From: Gammaproteobacteria bacterium
Lineage (GTDB): Bacteria > Pseudomonadota > Gammaproteobacteria > Natronospirales > REEB76
Length of the DNA stretch: 29,178 bases
Reading direction: 5' to 3'
Assembly (NCBI GenBank): GCA_036378075.1
Contig: DASUXE010000113.1
Coordinates: forward strand, 1-29,178
The notes below the pieces were generated by a model that made no database searches, was not told where the DNA came from, and saw only the letters and a program-made list of their open reading frames with translations. Positions 11,754 to 16,504 of the stretch are shown here, piece after piece. The first letter of the stretch is position 1, and each line of letters begins with the position of its first letter. A program made the position numbers and the translations under genes.

Positions 11754-12704
11754 GTGAACAGTCCCTCGCTGCTTGAATTCGGACATGGCATCACCGCCAT
11801 TGATACCGATTACGTGCGTCCGTTGCTGGATGCCAGCCATCTGATCGTGCGTAATGGACGTGCGGCGTTCGTGGATACCGGGACCACGCATTCAGTACCC
11901 AACCTGCTCGCGACGCTGGAACAGAAAGGGATCGATTCTGCGGCAGTCGATTACGTGCTGTTGACTCACGTGCATCTCGATCATGCCGGCGGTGCCGGCG
12001 AACTGATGCGGCATCTGCCCAACGCCCGGGCGCTGGTACATCCACGTGGCGCCGCTCACATCATCGATCCATCGAAATTGATCGCGGGCACCAAAGCCGT
12101 GTACGGTGCTGACGAATTTGCGCGCCTCTACGGCGAGATCCCGCCGATACCGGCTGAGCGCGTGCTGACAGTGAACGACGACATGCGCATGCCGCTCGGC
12201 AGTTCCGAATTGCAATTCATCCATACCCCGGGTCACGCGCTGCATCATTACAGCATCGTCGATGCAGACAGCGGCGGCGTGTTTACTGGCGATACCTTCG
12301 GCATTTCCTATCGCATATTCGATACCGCACAGGGTGCTTTCATCTTTCCGGCCACCACTCCGGTGCATTTCGATCCGGAGCAAGCGCATATGTCACTGGA
12401 TCGCATCATGTCATTCGAACCGGAGGCCTGTTTTCTGACTCACTACAGTCGCGTCACCGAACTGCAGCGACTCGCCGAAGATATGCACCGCGGAATCGAC
12501 ACGCTGGTGGCGATGGCAAAATCCAGCATGCCCAGCGCGGATCGCATCGCTGACATGAAGCCGAAGATTCACAAATGGCTGGTGCAGGCTGTGCGCGCAC
12601 ACGGCTGCATGCTGGACCAGAACACTGTCGATACCTGGTTGAGCATGGATGTGGATCTCAACGCCAAGGGGCTGGCGGTGTGGCTAGATCGAGTCTCTGA
12701 CTGA
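11754..12704 (+). CDS. MBL-fold metallo-hydrolase
   Basis: THVHLDHAGG (HxHxDH), 'HTPGHALHH', 'FTGDTFG', 'LTHYS'. GTG start. Confidence 0.92.
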   Translation: MNSPSLLEFGHGITAIDTDYVRPLLDASHLIVRNGRAAFVDTGTTHSVPNLLATLEQKGIDSAAVDYVLLTHVHLDHAGGAGELMRHLPNARALVHPRGAAHIIDPSKLIAGTKAVYGADEFARLYGEIPPIPAERVLTVNDDMRMPLGSSELQFIHTPGHALHHYSIVDADSGGVFTGDTFGISYRIFDTAQGAFIFPATTPVHFDPEQAHMSLDRIMSFEPEACFLTHYSRVTELQRLAEDMHRGIDTLVAMAKSSMPSADRIADMKPKIHKWLVQAVRAHGCMLDQNTVDTWLSMDVDLNAKGLAVWLDRVSD

Positions 12705-13025
12705 ATGACCCGCATCACCGGGTGCAACGTGCGGCTACCGTGAGCGGCACGGATAATACTACTTCCCATAATCGCGCATTCCATTTTTAAAGTTTCGTTG
12801 CTCGATCCCTGACTTTACGTAAGCGACCGATACATAACTGAAAGATTCACAGTCTTGTTGCCGGGATTGCGAATCGCGTCACGATAATATTTCTATTTAC
12901 TTATTACCTTTCTCCCATAAGACAGATTCCAAACCCGTCTTTTCAAGACCCGGGAATGGTCTGCCTTTCAGCGCCGTAAAACAGATAATCAAATACGGCC
13001 GAATCAAATTCCGGGAGACACCACT

Positions 13026-14468
13026 ATGTCCGGTCAAACATTTCTGACGCTCTGGTCCAGCTCGCCCACGGTATCCGCCGTGATCTGGCTGGTGTTGCTG
13101 ATTGTCGTGTTGTACGTGGCACGCGAGCCGGCACACCAGCTGCTGCGGAATCTGGGCGGTTTTATCTATCGCGGGATGCGTCTGGCGGCAAAGGCTTTGA
13201 TGCGCACATCGGAGCGTCTCAATGAACGCAATCGCGAAGTCATGCTGGTGCAGGCGCGTGAACACCAGGTCCAGCGATTGCAGCGCGAGTTTGAAAGGGT
13301 GGCGGGGTATGTAAACCACGACCTGAGCGCCTACCCCGCACTCAATCGCCAGTTGAGCGAGATGGGCGCCCGGGTCGAGGAAGATTTCCAGCGCTCCGGA
13401 GAAGTGCCACCGATGCCGCCACCGTGGGTGGACGCGGTGAATTCCATCGCCAAGATTCCGGCTAATGGTGATCCCATGATCGGCACCATTCTGCGCAACG
13501 TGCAGGACATGCTGGACAAGTCCAGCAAGGATGTGGTCGGGGCGTACCGCAAGGCGGCAGGCAAGCGGCATGAATTGCTGCAGCGCATGCTGCCGATGTG
13601 GCGTTACATGAACCGCAAGCTGGAAAGCCTGGAAAAGATGTTCGCCGGACTCGGTGAACGGACCCAGAAGATCGACAATCAGATCGCCCGGCTTGAAGAG
13701 ATCATCGACGGCACTGATCATGTCGAGGAGACCCTGAAATCCTCGGCGGTGACCCAGTTCTTCGTCGCCACCCTGCTGCTTGCCATTACCATCGTCGGCG
13801 GCGTGATCAACTTCAACCTGATTGCCATGCCGATGTCCGAGATGGTGGGCGGGGCCAGCTATATCGGGCCGTTCCACGCTTCCGACGTGGCGGCATTGAT
13901 GCTGGTTGCGATGGAGGTGTCGGTCGGCGTATTCCTGATGGACTCGTTGCGCTTTACCCACCTGTTTCCGGCCATCGCAACCATGGAAGACAAGGTGCGC
14001 CGCCGCGTGTTCCTGCTGATGCTGGTGTTCCTTACCGTGCTGGCCTGCATCGAATCAAGCCTCGGCTTCATGCGCAATCTGCTGGCGGCCGACAAGGAGG
14101 CGCTGATTCAGCAGCTCGCCGGCGGTGCAGTTACCGCGAGCGCCGCGTTTCAGTATCGCTGGTTGCCGTCGCTGGCACAGATGGTGTTGGGCTTCATCCT
14201 GCCGTTCCTGCTCGCCTGGGCCGCGATTCCGTTGGAAATGTTCGTGCATTCCGGCCGCACGGTGAGTGGACTGGTCAGCTCATCGGTGCTGCGGGTCAGT
14301 GCATTTGGTTTGCGCCTGGTGGGGAACATTGTCGAATCCGCGAGCCGCTTGCTGATCGCGTTCTATGACACGCTGGTGTCACCCATGTTGCTGGCGGAAC
14401 GCTGGATTCGCGGCTTGCGCGCCAACCATGAGCAGAGTCACAAGCAGAACCAGAAGAAAACCGCGTGA
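13026..14468 (+). CDS. Uncharacterised polytopic membrane protein with a long coiled-coil domain
   Basis: 480 aa with SD GGGAG. One N-terminal TM helix, about 200 aa of charged helical region with a Pro hinge (VPPMPPPW), four further hydrophobic segments, then an amphipathic C-terminus. Confidence 0.8.
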   Translation: MSGQTFLTLWSSSPTVSAVIWLVLLIVVLYVAREPAHQLLRNLGGFIYRGMRLAAKALMRTSERLNERNREVMLVQAREHQVQRLQREFERVAGYVNHDLSAYPALNRQLSEMGARVEEDFQRSGEVPPMPPPWVDAVNSIAKIPANGDPMIGTILRNVQDMLDKSSKDVVGAYRKAAGKRHELLQRMLPMWRYMNRKLESLEKMFAGLGERTQKIDNQIARLEEIIDGTDHVEETLKSSAVTQFFVATLLLAITIVGGVINFNLIAMPMSEMVGGASYIGPFHASDVAALMLVAMEVSVGVFLMDSLRFTHLFPAIATMEDKVRRRVFLLMLVFLTVLACIESSLGFMRNLLAADKEALIQQLAGGAVTASAAFQYRWLPSLAQMVLGFILPFLLAWAAIPLEMFVHSGRTVSGLVSSSVLRVSAFGLRLVGNIVESASRLLIAFYDTLVSPMLLAERWIRGLRANHEQSHKQNQKKTA

Positions 14469-14478
14469 GGAGGTTGTC

Positions 14479-15129
14479 ATGCGCCGCCTGATCGTACTTT
14501 CCATTACCGCGCTGGTTCTGCTGTTCGCCGGTTGCAGCGAAACCGGCGGCAGGCACGCGCGCGCAGTGTACGTGCTGCTCGACGTGTCGCAGAGCTACAG
14601 CAACAAACTCGATGCCGCCAATTCGGTAATCAACTATCTGCTCGGTACCCTGGTGAGCGGCGATTCGCTGACGGTTGCCAGTATCGACAGTGCCAGTTTT
14701 ACCGAAAAGGACATCGTTACCAAGGTCACCTTCGACGATCGCCCATCCGTGGCCAATGAACAGAAGCGCGCGCTGCGCGCACGCCTGAATCAGTTCTTCA
14801 GCAACCTGCATCCCAGCGACAGGACCGATGTCAGCGGTGCCTTGTTGCAGGCGGCTCAGGATCTTGATGAAAGCGGCGCGGGTCACCGCTATATCCTCGT
14901 GTTCTCGGATCTGGAACAGGATCTGCCGAAAGGCTACGTGCGCAAATCACGCCTGCCTCTCGACGGCACCCAGGTAATTGCTGTGGACGTGACCAAACTG
15001 CATTCGGACAACGTCAATCCGCAGAATTACCTTGACCGGCTCCAGCACTGGAAACAGGTGGTCACCAAGGACGGCGGTCAGTGGCTGGTGGTCAACGACA
15101 TGAACCACCTGGACCGGATATTCAACTGA
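14479..15129 (+). CDS. vWA-like (MIDAS) domain lipoprotein
   Basis: SD GAGGAGG and lipobox LFAGC (C19). 'VYVLLDVSQSY' gives DxSxS, followed by 'RTD' and 'ILVFSD'. Starts 10 nt after the upstream stop. Confidence 0.8.
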   Translation: MRRLIVLSITALVLLFAGCSETGGRHARAVYVLLDVSQSYSNKLDAANSVINYLLGTLVSGDSLTVASIDSASFTEKDIVTKVTFDDRPSVANEQKRALRARLNQFFSNLHPSDRTDVSGALLQAAQDLDESGAGHRYILVFSDLEQDLPKGYVRKSRLPLDGTQVIAVDVTKLHSDNVNPQNYLDRLQHWKQVVTKDGGQWLVVNDMNHLDRIFN

Positions 15130-15144
15130 ATAGCGTCGATCCGG

Positions 15145-15717
15145 TTACGCCATCGCACCCGTCTGCGGATCACCGGCGGGCGCGGTGGCGCGGCTCTTGA
15201 GTATCACGTTGACGTAATAGCAGATGTAGTATCCGGCCAGCAGGAAATAGATTCCGAGCGTGAGCGGACTGCGCTGATAGGCCGCGAACGGGGAGGCCTG
15301 CAATTGGGGGTTCTGCGCCGCCTGCTGGGCGGCACTGTGGATGGCAGGATAGATCACCGTGAAGCGGTAAATAAGCCGGCCGATAAGCAATGCCGTCACC
15401 CCCATGCCGATATAGCCATTGGGCGTATAGAAGCGGCCTTCGGGCGTGGTTTCGAATCGGGTATGTGCAAGAGCATAGAACCCCAGACCGATTCCAATCA
15501 CGACACCGATTGCTGCAGCGACCAGGCTCATGCTGGTGCGGAACGGCGAGACCAGCAACAACACACAGACCAGCGCCAGGATCACCACCCGTATCCACAT
15601 GGCGGTCGGACGCAGCCGCTGGCGGCCGATGTTGCGGCGAAAGCGCCGGTACAGTACGAACAGCACCAGGGCGCCGATCAGAACGGTGTTGAGCAAGCCT
15701 GCGGCAGTCGGATGCAT
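15145..15717 (-). CDS. DUF1453/CcdC-like membrane protein
   Basis: 'LYRRFRRNIGRQRL', 'LAHTRFE...YTPNGYIG...LLIGRLIYR' and several TM segments. SD-like AAGGGGG before the ATG at 15717. Confidence 0.72.
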   Translation of the reverse strand: MHPTAAGLLNTVLIGALVLFVLYRRFRRNIGRQRLRPTAMWIRVVILALVCVLLLVSPFRTSMSLVAAAIGVVIGIGLGFYALAHTRFETTPEGRFYTPNGYIGMGVTALLIGRLIYRFTVIYPAIHSAAQQAAQNPQLQASPFAAYQRSPLTLGIYFLLAGYYICYYVNVILKSRATAPAGDPQTGAMA

Positions 15718-15784
15718 GGTTTGGTTTCCCCCTTGTTTGTCCGGACTATACTCTAACATCGCCCGGTGAATTGGTATTTAAAAC

Positions 15785-16504
15785 TTAATCCCGGTCGCGT
15801 ATTACGAGTTCCAGACCATCCGGTGTCGCGATCTGAATCGCCGATGCGCCATCGTGGTCCCGTTGCCGCCGGAACGGAATGCCGCGTGTCTCGAGTAATT
15901 GCAACAACACTTCCGGCTGTTCGTTGATGAACACCAGCTGTGGCGGTGTGCGTGCGCCGCGCACCTGCATGCCCAGATTGAGCCCGCTGCGCGCCACTTG
16001 TGCGTAGTGTGCCGGTGGTTCGTTTACCACTGCCGCCACCATGCCCATGCGTTCCCAGAAGTCGCAGCTGGACTTGCAGTCACGGACGCCGATGCGGTAT
16101 TCGAGAAAATAGCCGCATGCGGAATCGCCAAATCCGGCACGCAGCGGCGAATAGGTGCGCGCCTCCAGTAACGTAATCATCTGTTGATCCGGGTCGGTGA
16201 AACCGGCTTCATTGAATTCGTCATCAGCGAGTTTGCAGAAGGCGAATTCAATGCCGAGCTGTTCAAAGCCGGCAAGCTTGGCGCGCAGATCGGGCAGCAC
16301 GAAGGTCAGGGACGGCGACGGGAATTCGTATTGGTGCAATCCCAGCGCCACCCGGCCGTCGGTCAGGACCGCATAGGGATGCCGCCAGGTCTCGCCGACC
16401 GGCGCATGCCGGAAACCCAGCCGTTCGTAAAATTCTATCGAGGCCAGGATCTCCGCGGTCGAGACGCTGATTTCGAGAAAATCGCCAAGCATCGGCGCGC
16501 TCAT
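15785..16504 (-). CDS. Tandem VOC-fold-like hypothetical protein, translationally coupled to hemH
   Basis: Two similar halves: 'FLEISV...SIEFYERLGF' and 'FLEYRI...SCDFWERMGM'. Its ATG (16504) overlaps the hemH stop (ATGA). The longer ORF-track N-terminus lies inside hemH. Confidence 0.68.
   Translation of the reverse strand: MSAPMLGDFLEISVSTAEILASIEFYERLGFRHAPVGETWRHPYAVLTDGRVALGLHQYEFPSPSLTFVLPDLRAKLAGFEQLGIEFAFCKLADDEFNEAGFTDPDQQMITLLEARTYSPLRAGFGDSACGYFLEYRIGVRDCKSSCDFWERMGMVAAVVNEPPAHYAQVARSGLNLGMQVRGARTPPQLVFINEQPEVLLQLLETRGIPFRRQRDHDGASAIQIATPDGLELVIRDRD

Follow-up and report, generated by a model that had tools for sequence, protein, structure and literature searches.

A vWA lipoprotein and its five-helix membrane partner form a widespread bacterial gene pair with co-varying glutamates: a possible envelope signal transducer

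The window analysed here, a stretch of 29,178 nucleotides from a gammaproteobacterial contig (order Natronospirales; DASUXE010000113.1), carries two adjacent genes on its forward strand. Gene 1 encodes a predicted inner-membrane protein of 480 residues, and gene 2 a predicted lipoprotein of 216 residues built around a single von Willebrand factor A (vWA) domain. The new observation is that three glutamates of the gene 1 protein, Glu272, Glu297 and Glu343, vary together across the family and track the vWA partner. Open reading frame (ORF) calling separates the two genes by a spacer of 10 nt (ggaggttgtc); the gene 2 start is an internal ATG of a longer ORF (14365-15129), with GGAGG 5 nt ahead of it. 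An earlier note on this DNA, made from its letters alone, had described co-oriented genes 10 nt apart with Shine-Dalgarno sites, and its coordinates hold: GGGAGA precedes gene 1 and GGAGG precedes gene 2 (Table 1).

The gene 1 protein fails every family test run and represents an undescribed family, for which neither Pfam nor NCBIfam has a model. Searches of Pfam, NCBIfam and PADLOC, the last at E-values up to 1, gave nothing meaningful. A sequence search of the PDB returned no match, and a profile search of the PDB returned only transmembrane (TM) and coiled-coil noise, the best entry being AT1R (E 5e-4). The AlphaFold2 (AF2) model, computed from an alignment of 104 sequences, has a predicted local distance difference test score (pLDDT) of 93.8 and a predicted TM-score (pTM) of 0.76. 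Foldseek found no match for it in the PDB at E up to 1e-3, and its matches among the AFDB clusters are unnamed members of its own family only. VIA-align, run as a wide search with a second look, returned only generic antiparallel coiled coils such as Smc arms, p85 iSH2 and EnvC, covering residues ~74-229 at Z 8-10, which is the noise level for helical models. Helices 33-124 and 150-228 are the sole part of the protein that structural searches recognise.

Hydropathy places five TM segments at residues ~15-32, 243-266, 287-306, 326-345 and 384-405, in agreement with the N-terminal TM segment and four further hydrophobic segments described earlier. Past residue 405, no stretch has TM-like hydropathy (maximum 1.29). 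The helices of the AF2 model span residues 14-31, 33-124, 134-142, 150-228, 231-274, 285-307, 322-364, 379-397, 400-450 and 452-479, and a small beta-hairpin is formed by residues 279-284. The PPMPPP motif (127-132) had been taken for a hinge between two helical regions; the model instead puts it at the distal tip of one hairpin. Counted from the sequence, the loop 267-286 contains zero Lys or Arg and the loop 307-327 contains five; the stretch that follows TM1 is basic, as are the last 75 residues. This charge distribution, together with natural fusions of the two genes (see below), points to a cytoplasmic hairpin. The fusions, which join the C-terminal tail to the vWA domain via a TM linker, place this tail in the cytoplasm independently of the charge argument. 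We infer a topology in which the N-terminus would lie outside and the hairpin inside, followed by two periplasmic loops of ~20 and 38 residues and a cytoplasmic C-terminus.

The gene 2 protein is a new member of the vWA superfamily. It passes the gathering threshold of Pfam VWA_2 (PF13519) by a narrow margin (27.1 bits, threshold 27.0; E 6.8e-6), and several homologues bear a precomputed PF13519 annotation. The AF2 model (pLDDT 86.7) is a plain vWA fold of the alpha/beta, Rossmann-like type. Foldseek assigns it a probability of 1.0 to TFIIH p44, CMG2, BatB and integrin I domains at a TM-score of ~0.5, and the fold search brought up no vWA subfamily closer than these. The lipobox cysteine, Cys19, is followed by Ser20 at position +2, and the first strand starts ~10 residues past Cys19. 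Besides the D35-S37-S39 motif of the metal-ion-dependent adhesion site (MIDAS), the protein carries T116-D117 and F142-S143-D144. The earlier description of a lipoprotein with Ser at +2 and a vWA domain with MIDAS, TD and FSD elements is confirmed. In 35 gene 2 sequences, down to 50% identity, C19, D35, S37, T116, D117, S143 and D144 are invariant, and position 39 is either Ser or Thr. The invariant lipobox cysteine (35/35) predicts lipidation and marks the gene 2 product as a putative lipoprotein.

The earlier note had proposed checking whether the two genes co-occur elsewhere. We called and clustered the ORFs in 80 fetched loci plus the window (81 loci) and found gene 2 directly downstream of gene 1, on the same strand, in 78 of them, usually with a 4-nt overlap. 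Two of the three remaining loci (L035 and L057) end less than 1 kb from gene 1; the third (L066) has the flank and contains no clustered gene 2. No other clustered ORF is generally conserved beside the pair in the 81 loci, and across 125 flanks the nearest neighbours outside the module match 134 Pfam families, the commonest of which occurs only five times. In a cluster of ten proteins (659-685 aa) from JGI and ENA metagenome contigs, both genes are joined in one chain. The fused proteins retain PMSE of gene 1 and DTSGT of gene 2; what was once the signal peptide now spans the membrane as a TM linker from the tail of gene 1 to the vWA domain. Such fusions constitute Rosetta-stone evidence for a physical complex, and because the vWA domain is tethered through a TM helix, they locate it at the outer face of the inner membrane. 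The two genes are thus supported as one conserved functional unit, whose products probably form a complex.

We also predicted the complex from gene 1 residues 231-480, mature gene 2 and Mg. The score was 0.41, against 0.00 for the best of three controls, which amounts to weak support. The calibration applies only roughly, since we supplied our own alignments and a Mg ion: in it, 58 of 80 solved complexes and 2 of 110 mismatched pairs attained the mark, and scores of 0.60 or less were obtained by only 7 of the 80 solved complexes but by both mismatches that passed. The runs agreed with one another in at least 86% of their contacts, and the pLDDT of the partner was at least 78. The hetero-oligomer modelling suggested by the earlier note thus gave the pairing weak support, with no interface reported.

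Conservation within gene 1 was followed at two depths. In 36 sequences of at least 43% identity, N262, L265-A267 and P269-G275 (PMSEMVG) are invariant. The same holds for many cytoplasm-facing residues and for E297, E343 and E404, which had earlier been placed, correctly, in or beside TM segments. Glu272, within PMSEMVG, is the only well-conserved acidic residue in either periplasmic loop. In a wider set of 104 representatives, the most distant at 25% identity, those that persist best are R33, W134, R181, L185, G301, T/S311, R325, E404, Y447-D448 and E458, all of them cytoplasmic or at the cytoplasmic membrane boundary. In the same set, position 306 is always Asp or Glu, and the tip residue W134 is retained in 101 of 104, vWA-less members included.

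The glutamates nearer the periplasm behave differently from E404. We compared 98 representatives, clustered at 50% identity. Where residue 272 is acidic, E297 and E343 are both present in 45 of 68 sequences; where it is not, they are both present in 1 of 30 (Fisher p 1.4e-9, not corrected for relatedness). The presence of E404 shows no dependence on residue 272. The gene neighbourhoods follow the same division. Six members that lack Glu272 (P0276, P0279, P0298, P0312, P0340 and the member at locus L125) have no adjacent vWA gene, their neighbours being an MFS transporter gene, an unrelated ORF, no same-strand gene at all, a short-chain dehydrogenase gene or convergent genes. Two remote members that bear Glu272 (L100 and L101, 25-28% identity) are overlapped by a gene for a vWA lipoprotein with DxSGT, TD and FSD motifs. 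A vWA lipoprotein gene is present at 27 more Glu272-bearing loci, which brings this further set to 29 of 30. With the first locus set included, an adjacent vWA gene accompanies 107 of 108 members with Glu272 and none of the six without it (0/6). When 401 genomes of the phylum were searched with a profile, most of the members recovered bore Glu272, and a single further locus without it was added.

The tip tryptophan and the cytoplasmic residue set survive in members without the periplasmic glutamate. Because these Glu272-less, vWA-less members keep both the hairpin and the cytoplasmic residues, the gene 1 family has a core function that is independent of the vWA protein. Its probable seat is the cytoplasmic hairpin together with the residues at the cytoplasmic boundary. 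One Glu272-less, vWA-less member (L099) is encoded between a SiaA/SiaC/GGDEF-type cluster and a second GGDEF gene.

Table 1 Features of the gene pair and its leader, in window coordinates
Feature	Position	Strand	Remark
Promoter/leader region, 321 nt	12705-13025	+	Gap between MBL-fold gene and gene 1
Leader block TTTACGTAAGC, holding the perfect palindrome TTACGTAA	12814-12824	+	Conserved in close relatives
Leader block GGGATTGCGAATCGCGTCACGATAAT, with imperfect 6-3-6 palindrome and -10-like GATAAT	12863-12888	+	Conserved in close relatives
Shine-Dalgarno GGGAGA	13013-13018	+	7 nt ahead of gene 1 ATG
Gene 1, predicted inner-membrane protein with five TM helices and cytoplasmic coiled-coil hairpin	13026-14468	+	Family without description
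Antiparallel coiled-coil hairpin, residues 33-228 (helices 33-124 and 150-228)	13122-13709	+	Inferred cytoplasmic; AF2 model
PPMPPPW, proline-rich hairpin tip, residues 128-134	13407-13427	+	AF2 model, conservation
End of TM2 and first periplasmic loop, residues 262-276 (NFNLIAMPMSEMVGG)	13809-13853	+	Invariant
Glu272 codon, in loop PMSEMVGG	13839-13841	+	Proposed MIDAS ligand
Glu297 codon, mid-TM3	13914-13916	+	Co-varies with Glu272 and Glu343
Glu343 codon, periplasmic end of TM4	14052-14054	+	Co-varies with Glu272 and Glu297
Glu404 codon, cytoplasmic end of TM5	14235-14237	+	91/104 representatives, partner present or not
Shine-Dalgarno GGAGG for gene 2	14469-14473	+	Abuts gene 1 stop codon
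Gene 2, predicted lipoprotein, single vWA domain with complete MIDAS site	14479-15129	+	216 aa
Lipoprotein signal peptide, lipobox LFAGC	14479-14535	+	Cys19 codon 14533-14535; sequence, conservation
MIDAS motif D35-V-S37-Q-S39	14581-14595	+	T116 at 14824-14826, D144 at 14908-14910

In one gammaproteobacterial clade the pair is encoded next to a regulatory system. A divergent operon lies directly upstream in 34 of the 59 loci that have at least 2.6 kb of upstream flank. It encodes an OmpR-type regulator of 270 aa, with a REC domain and a weak winged-helix match, and a kinase of 511-606 aa with two N-terminal TM helices, a very short loop between them and an extra C-terminal domain. The Pfam matches of the linked kinase are to GHKL ATPase-domain models only (HATPase_c and relatives), with no match to HisKA. 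At the expected H-box position, four of the kinase genes (L015:7474-9009, L030, L038 and L052) encode the block HA(E/D)KLKxFISDKLL(E/D)YIEYDEKFLHFK. The intergenic region of kinase-linked loci contains a direct repeat, TTTTTCAC-N3-TTTTTCAC, with a period of 11 bp and oriented towards gene 1. Most kinase-linked loci carry this element, either complete or as a single TTTTTCAC-like copy; the repeat is absent in the window and in nearly all kinase-less loci. In the gene 1 tree, the kinase-linked loci fall into one clade of 43 rows (support 100/99), comprising 36 linked loci, four with truncated flanks and three that are unlinked; the window belongs to a separate, kinase-free clade. In Thalassolituus (L001) a GGDEF gene stands beside the kinase. 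Cyclic di-GMP genes turn up repeatedly around the gene 1 family, but GGDEF genes account for only 4 of the 125 flanking genes.

The leader of the window has conserved elements of its own. The blocks that it has in common with close relatives (L005, L007, L008, L010 and L012) are TTTACGTAAGC, ACATAAC and GGGAnTGCGAATCCCGTCACGATAAT, and the imperfect 6-3-6 palindrome is GGGATTGCGAATCGC, after which comes GTCACGATAAT. These blocks look like a regulator's operator that overlaps a -10 element. Rfam gave no match in the window at gathering thresholds or in the leader at E up to 10, and a scan for the sigma-70 consensus found no promoter-like site in 12500-15900. A third arrangement occurs in a Nitrospirota locus (L073), where gene 1 is preceded, at a distance of 73 nt, by a cyclic di-GMP (c-di-GMP)-I riboswitch (51.8 bits; cut-off 35). 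No such riboswitch was found in 21 other kinase-less loci scanned or in the window. In two gammaproteobacterial metagenome-assembled genomes (MAGs), the pair is followed, after a few hundred nt, by a cobalamin riboswitch (L037:12041-12261 and L061:11832-12052; 103 and 109 bits) that presumably controls the next operon.

Polytopic proteins and lipoproteins that serve as accessory modules of intramembrane-sensing kinases are found in SaePQRS of Staphylococcus aureus and, more loosely, in LiaFSR and BceRS-AB. The kinase-linked clade resembles SaePQRS in that a lipoprotein and a polytopic protein are encoded behind a direct-repeat operator, beside an OmpR-type regulator and a kinase that is nearly loopless. 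Unlike in SaePQRS, however, the kinase module is confined to one clade and absent from the window, and the pair is far more widespread than the kinase. We know of no homology between the pair and SaeP or SaeQ.

Our best reading of these data as a whole, which we put forward tentatively, is that the pair acts as a cation-dependent signal transducer of the inner membrane, held together by a contact between Glu272 and the MIDAS. The periplasmic vWA lipoprotein would dock on the small periplasmic face of gene 1, where the carboxylate of Glu272 would complete the coordination of the MIDAS metal. The state of this metal-dependent contact would be coupled, via E343 and E297, to the cytoplasmic hairpin, with its ~75 residues per arm and conserved Pro/Trp tip; the C-terminal helices would likewise lie in the cytoplasm. 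The individual parts of this proposal differ in strength. Docking at the PMSEMVGG loop, with its glutamate completing the MIDAS coordination, is the simplest reading of how the triad tracks the partner, and for Glu272 as a MIDAS ligand we consider the chances evenly balanced. Whether the output is signal transduction, as opposed to ion conduction or another effector role, is doubtful. More speculative still is the idea of a new transducer class in which a Glu-MIDAS handshake is relayed to a hairpin of ~11 nm whose tip would control partners such as sensor-less kinases. The earlier suggestion of a receptor-effector system is plausible.

A precedent for such a relay exists in integrins, in which an invariant glutamate of the alpha-I linker binds the beta-I MIDAS and acts as an 'intrinsic ligand'. 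By analogy, in both cases a glutamate of the partner would complete the MIDAS metal and a signal would be relayed across a membrane-anchored complex. The two differ in that only the vWA superfamily is shared, gene 1 encodes a polytopic protein of the bacterial inner membrane, and the contact proposed for it is deduced from co-variation.

Several points weigh against the transducer reading. The complex prediction returned no interface contacts, and the co-variation counts from which a Glu272-MIDAS contact is deduced are not phylogenetically independent. Distant members carry Gln or small residues in place of E297 and E343. P0326 (locus L102) bears Glu272 but lacks a vWA gene beside it; encoded close to the end of a contig, two genes downstream of one for a DnaG-type primase, it may belong to a mobile element. 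In the 35 gene 2 sequences, position +2 is occupied by Ser, Thr, Ala, Gly, Asn or Pro, never by Asp. Under the E. coli +2 rule, a Ser or Thr at this position, with no Asp, directs a lipoprotein to the outer membrane; the rule thus predicts a sorting that conflicts with docking at the inner membrane, but it may be inapplicable in the carrier lineages. The link to the kinase is real but represents essentially one evolutionary event. The window has neither kinase nor regulator; a kinase query found none in the window's MAG, which is 81% complete, and a regulator query found only a weak match to an unrelated regulator. Because the kinase is absent from the window and was not found in the MAG, the pair would work without it. 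Finally, a position beside a regulator is as compatible with a regulated effector as with a sensor.

The main rival to a transducer, which we consider unlikely, is that gene 1 is a cation channel or transporter and the vWA protein its gating or ion-delivering accessory subunit. The acidic positions along the TM helices fit a ladder running from E272 at the periplasmic surface through E343 at the outer boundary and E297 in mid-membrane to D/E306 and E404 at the cytoplasmic boundary. The constancy of an acidic residue at position 306 and the retention of E404 (Table 1) would suit such a path, as would the co-variation of E272, E297 and E343 with a metal-binding partner. There are also eukaryotic parallels: in CaV alpha2-delta and CLCA1/TMEM16A, a tethered extracytoplasmic subunit with a vWA domain and MIDAS sits on a polytopic partner, and alpha2-delta is among the many Foldseek vWA matches of gene 2 (rank 48). 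In those systems, however, the partner has a known channel fold, whereas gene 1 resembles no channel or transporter in fold or sequence by Foldseek, VIA-align, PDB profile search or Pfam. The vWA-less members that lack the ladder nevertheless keep the hairpin and the cytoplasmic invariants, which argues that the core function is not conduction through these glutamates. Moreover, the MIDAS metal is a fixed binding cofactor, and we know of no case in which it is handed over to a transport pathway.

Rather less probable is a second alternative, according to which the pair is a structural or protective effector of the envelope, such as a membrane-stabilising or membrane-remodelling scaffold, that is switched on and off by regulators and senses nothing. 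This would account for the different regulation found in each lineage (direct-repeat operator, c-di-GMP-I riboswitch, and palindromes in the window's clade) and for the fact that most clades have the pair without the kinase. The long coiled-coil hairpin also resembles scaffold proteins, if only generically: beyond a coiled coil matched at Z 8-10, gene 1 has no similarity to the PspA/ESCRT-III, flotillin or dynamin families. A purely structural role would, in addition, leave the invariant MIDAS and the glutamate triad unexplained.

A trans-envelope arrangement, as the earlier note had it, is improbable. Here the lipoprotein would reach across the periplasm from the outer membrane, or a periplasmic hairpin of the YhgE/Pip/EsaA type would contact it. 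The lack of Asp at +2, read by the E. coli rule, would agree with the former, and the order of one TM helix, a long helical hairpin and several further TM helices recalls the layout of YhgE/Pip/EsaA. In those proteins, however, the helical domain lies outside the cytoplasm, whereas the charge distribution and the fusions point to a cytoplasmic hairpin in gene 1, and neither gene 1 nor the 36 relatives searched have a Pfam match to YhgE/Pip. The fusions tether the vWA domain to the gene 1 C-terminus by a TM helix, at the inner membrane, and the dimensions are small: ~10 residues lie between Cys19 and the first strand, and the periplasmic loops measure 20 and 38 residues. Short loops, short tether and fusion together point to a complex at the outer face of the inner membrane rather than across the envelope.

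We compared the pair with two further bacterial systems that contain envelope vWA proteins, and rejected both as its identity. Bat loci combine a MoxR ATPase, a DUF58 protein and TPR proteins with vWA proteins anchored by TM helices. BatA and BatB of the Bacteroides aerotolerance operon (PDB 4jdu and 3ibs) are envelope vWA proteins with a MIDAS, as is gene 2, and rank 21 and 39 in its Foldseek search. None of these partners accompanies the pair: neither MoxR nor DUF58 genes occur in the window or in the conserved neighbour clusters of the 81 loci, and neither is among the 25 most frequent families of the 125 flanking genes. The other system consists of TolQ-like proteins, detected by PF01618, and TPH-vWA proteins, which possess a transpore helix with a proton-binding Asp; such pairs have been suggested to work as 5:2 motor units (Mol Biol Evol 2025, PMC12204202). 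They resemble the present pair as a membrane protein tightly coupled to a membrane-tethered periplasmic vWA, widespread in Proteobacteria and of unknown function (PMC12204202). PF01618 is found neither in gene 1 (E up to 1) nor in 36 relatives (E up to 0.1), and the fold searches listed no ExbB, TolQ or MotA among the gene 1 matches. The gene 2 N-terminus, MRRLIVLSITALVLLFAGC, contains no Asp and ends in a lipobox, unlike that of a TPH-vWA protein. A full-text literature search found no paper on the pair. We therefore regard it as a system without described counterpart, a statement that rests on the absence of matches and not on a demonstrated mechanism. The earlier note could assign it to no named pathway, and profile searches likewise place neither protein in one; no characterised system emerged, the genes co-occur, and the Glu and MIDAS residues are conserved, each of which that note had named as a point on which its proposal could fail.

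The family is large. In a set of 5.8 billion proteins, gene 1 has more than 1300 homologues and gene 2 more than 1100, almost all of them unnamed or annotated as 'hypothetical' or 'VWA domain-containing'. At E up to 1e-3, an exhaustive phmmer search with gene 1 collected 701 clusters (50% identity), and at least 578 stretches in a species-level genome collection encode a relative. Carriers belong to Pseudomonadota, Thermodesulfobacteriota, Myxococcota, Nitrospirota and other phyla. They include cultured bacteria (Thalassolituus, Hahella ganghwensis, Salinispirillum, Aliikangiella, Halioxenophilus and Bacterioplanoides pacificum) and MAGs labelled Kangiella, Desulfobacteraceae, Geobacteraceae, Myxococcota, Nitrospirota and Deferribacterota. 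Three gene 1 copies are near-identical (L046, L047 and L060; branch lengths 0.02-0.05) in MAGs labelled Anaerolineales, Pseudomonadota and Desulfobacteraceae, which reflects either recent transfer or mis-binned contigs. DNA near-identical to the locus is present in soil metagenomes of several studies. One soil metatranscriptome library contains contigs on parts of both genes; they cover neither the flanks nor the gene junction, DNA in the library cannot be excluded, and we take them as a hint of expression only.

Presence is patchy at shorter evolutionary distances. Gene 1 occurs in 33 of 66 genomes of the window's order (14 of the 32 of high quality) and in 33 of 401 genomes of the sampled phylum, and single genera are themselves mixed, with, for instance, 8 of 15 carrying it in one and 3 of 21 in another. 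Three genomes of one genus in the window's order (G022, G023 and G024) each encode two gene 1 paralogues, one close (E ~1e-212 to 1e-219) and one distant (E ~1e-88 to 1e-95). In the window, the pair is surrounded by housekeeping genes: mnmG and the genes for a glutathione peroxidase, a FecR/SPOR protein and an MBL-fold hydrolase, as well as a VOC protein gene, hemH, mscL and a thiolase gene. The long upstream region and the convergent gene noted earlier are both there, the former as the gap of 321 nt and the latter as a gene for a 204-aa membrane protein (15145-15759, minus strand) that ends 15 nt past the gene 2 stop. The 204-aa protein has no Pfam match. It accompanies the VOC gene and hemH even in relatives without the pair (L093, L094 and L095), and because it travels with them we place it outside the module.

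Two complete-looking relatives that lack the pair keep the order hemH - VOC - 204-aa membrane protein - [slot] - MBL - FecR/SPOR - glutathione peroxidase - mnmG. Their slot is occupied by a gene for an SRAP (YedK-like) peptidase or by a TraB/PrgY/GumN gene (L093:8625-9362 and L095:8081-8896), and represents a local hotspot for gene exchange. From the patchy presence, and from synteny that is kept with other cargo in the slot, we conclude that the two genes make up an accessory cassette whose slot in the chromosome is variable. An anti-phage or abortive-infection cassette, in which the vWA protein would detect phage and the membrane protein would kill or depolarise the cell, might be expected to show just such patchiness, such a slot and such a compact two-gene make-up with a membrane component, but this idea of the earlier note ranks last and is very improbable: PADLOC (PADLOC-DB 2.0) has no match to either protein at E up to 1, the window neighbours are housekeeping genes, the 25 most frequent of the 134 Pfam families of the 125 flanking genes have no defence theme, and control by a c-di-GMP riboswitch or a dedicated kinase and regulator is unusual for defence genes.

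With gene 1, a large family comes into view that lacks a Pfam or NCBIfam model, a solved or recognisable fold and a published function. It is paired with a vWA domain, a module well understood in eukaryotic adhesion and channel regulation and poorly understood in the bacterial periplasm. The co-variation makes the assignment of Glu272 as a MIDAS ligand directly testable, and the cultured carriers make genetics feasible. If gene 1 were to prove a channel or a scaffold instead, it would still be a new membrane protein fold. If the pair is a cation-dependent transducer, it would represent a new input device for bacterial envelope signalling and could explain how kinases without sensor domains receive their signal.

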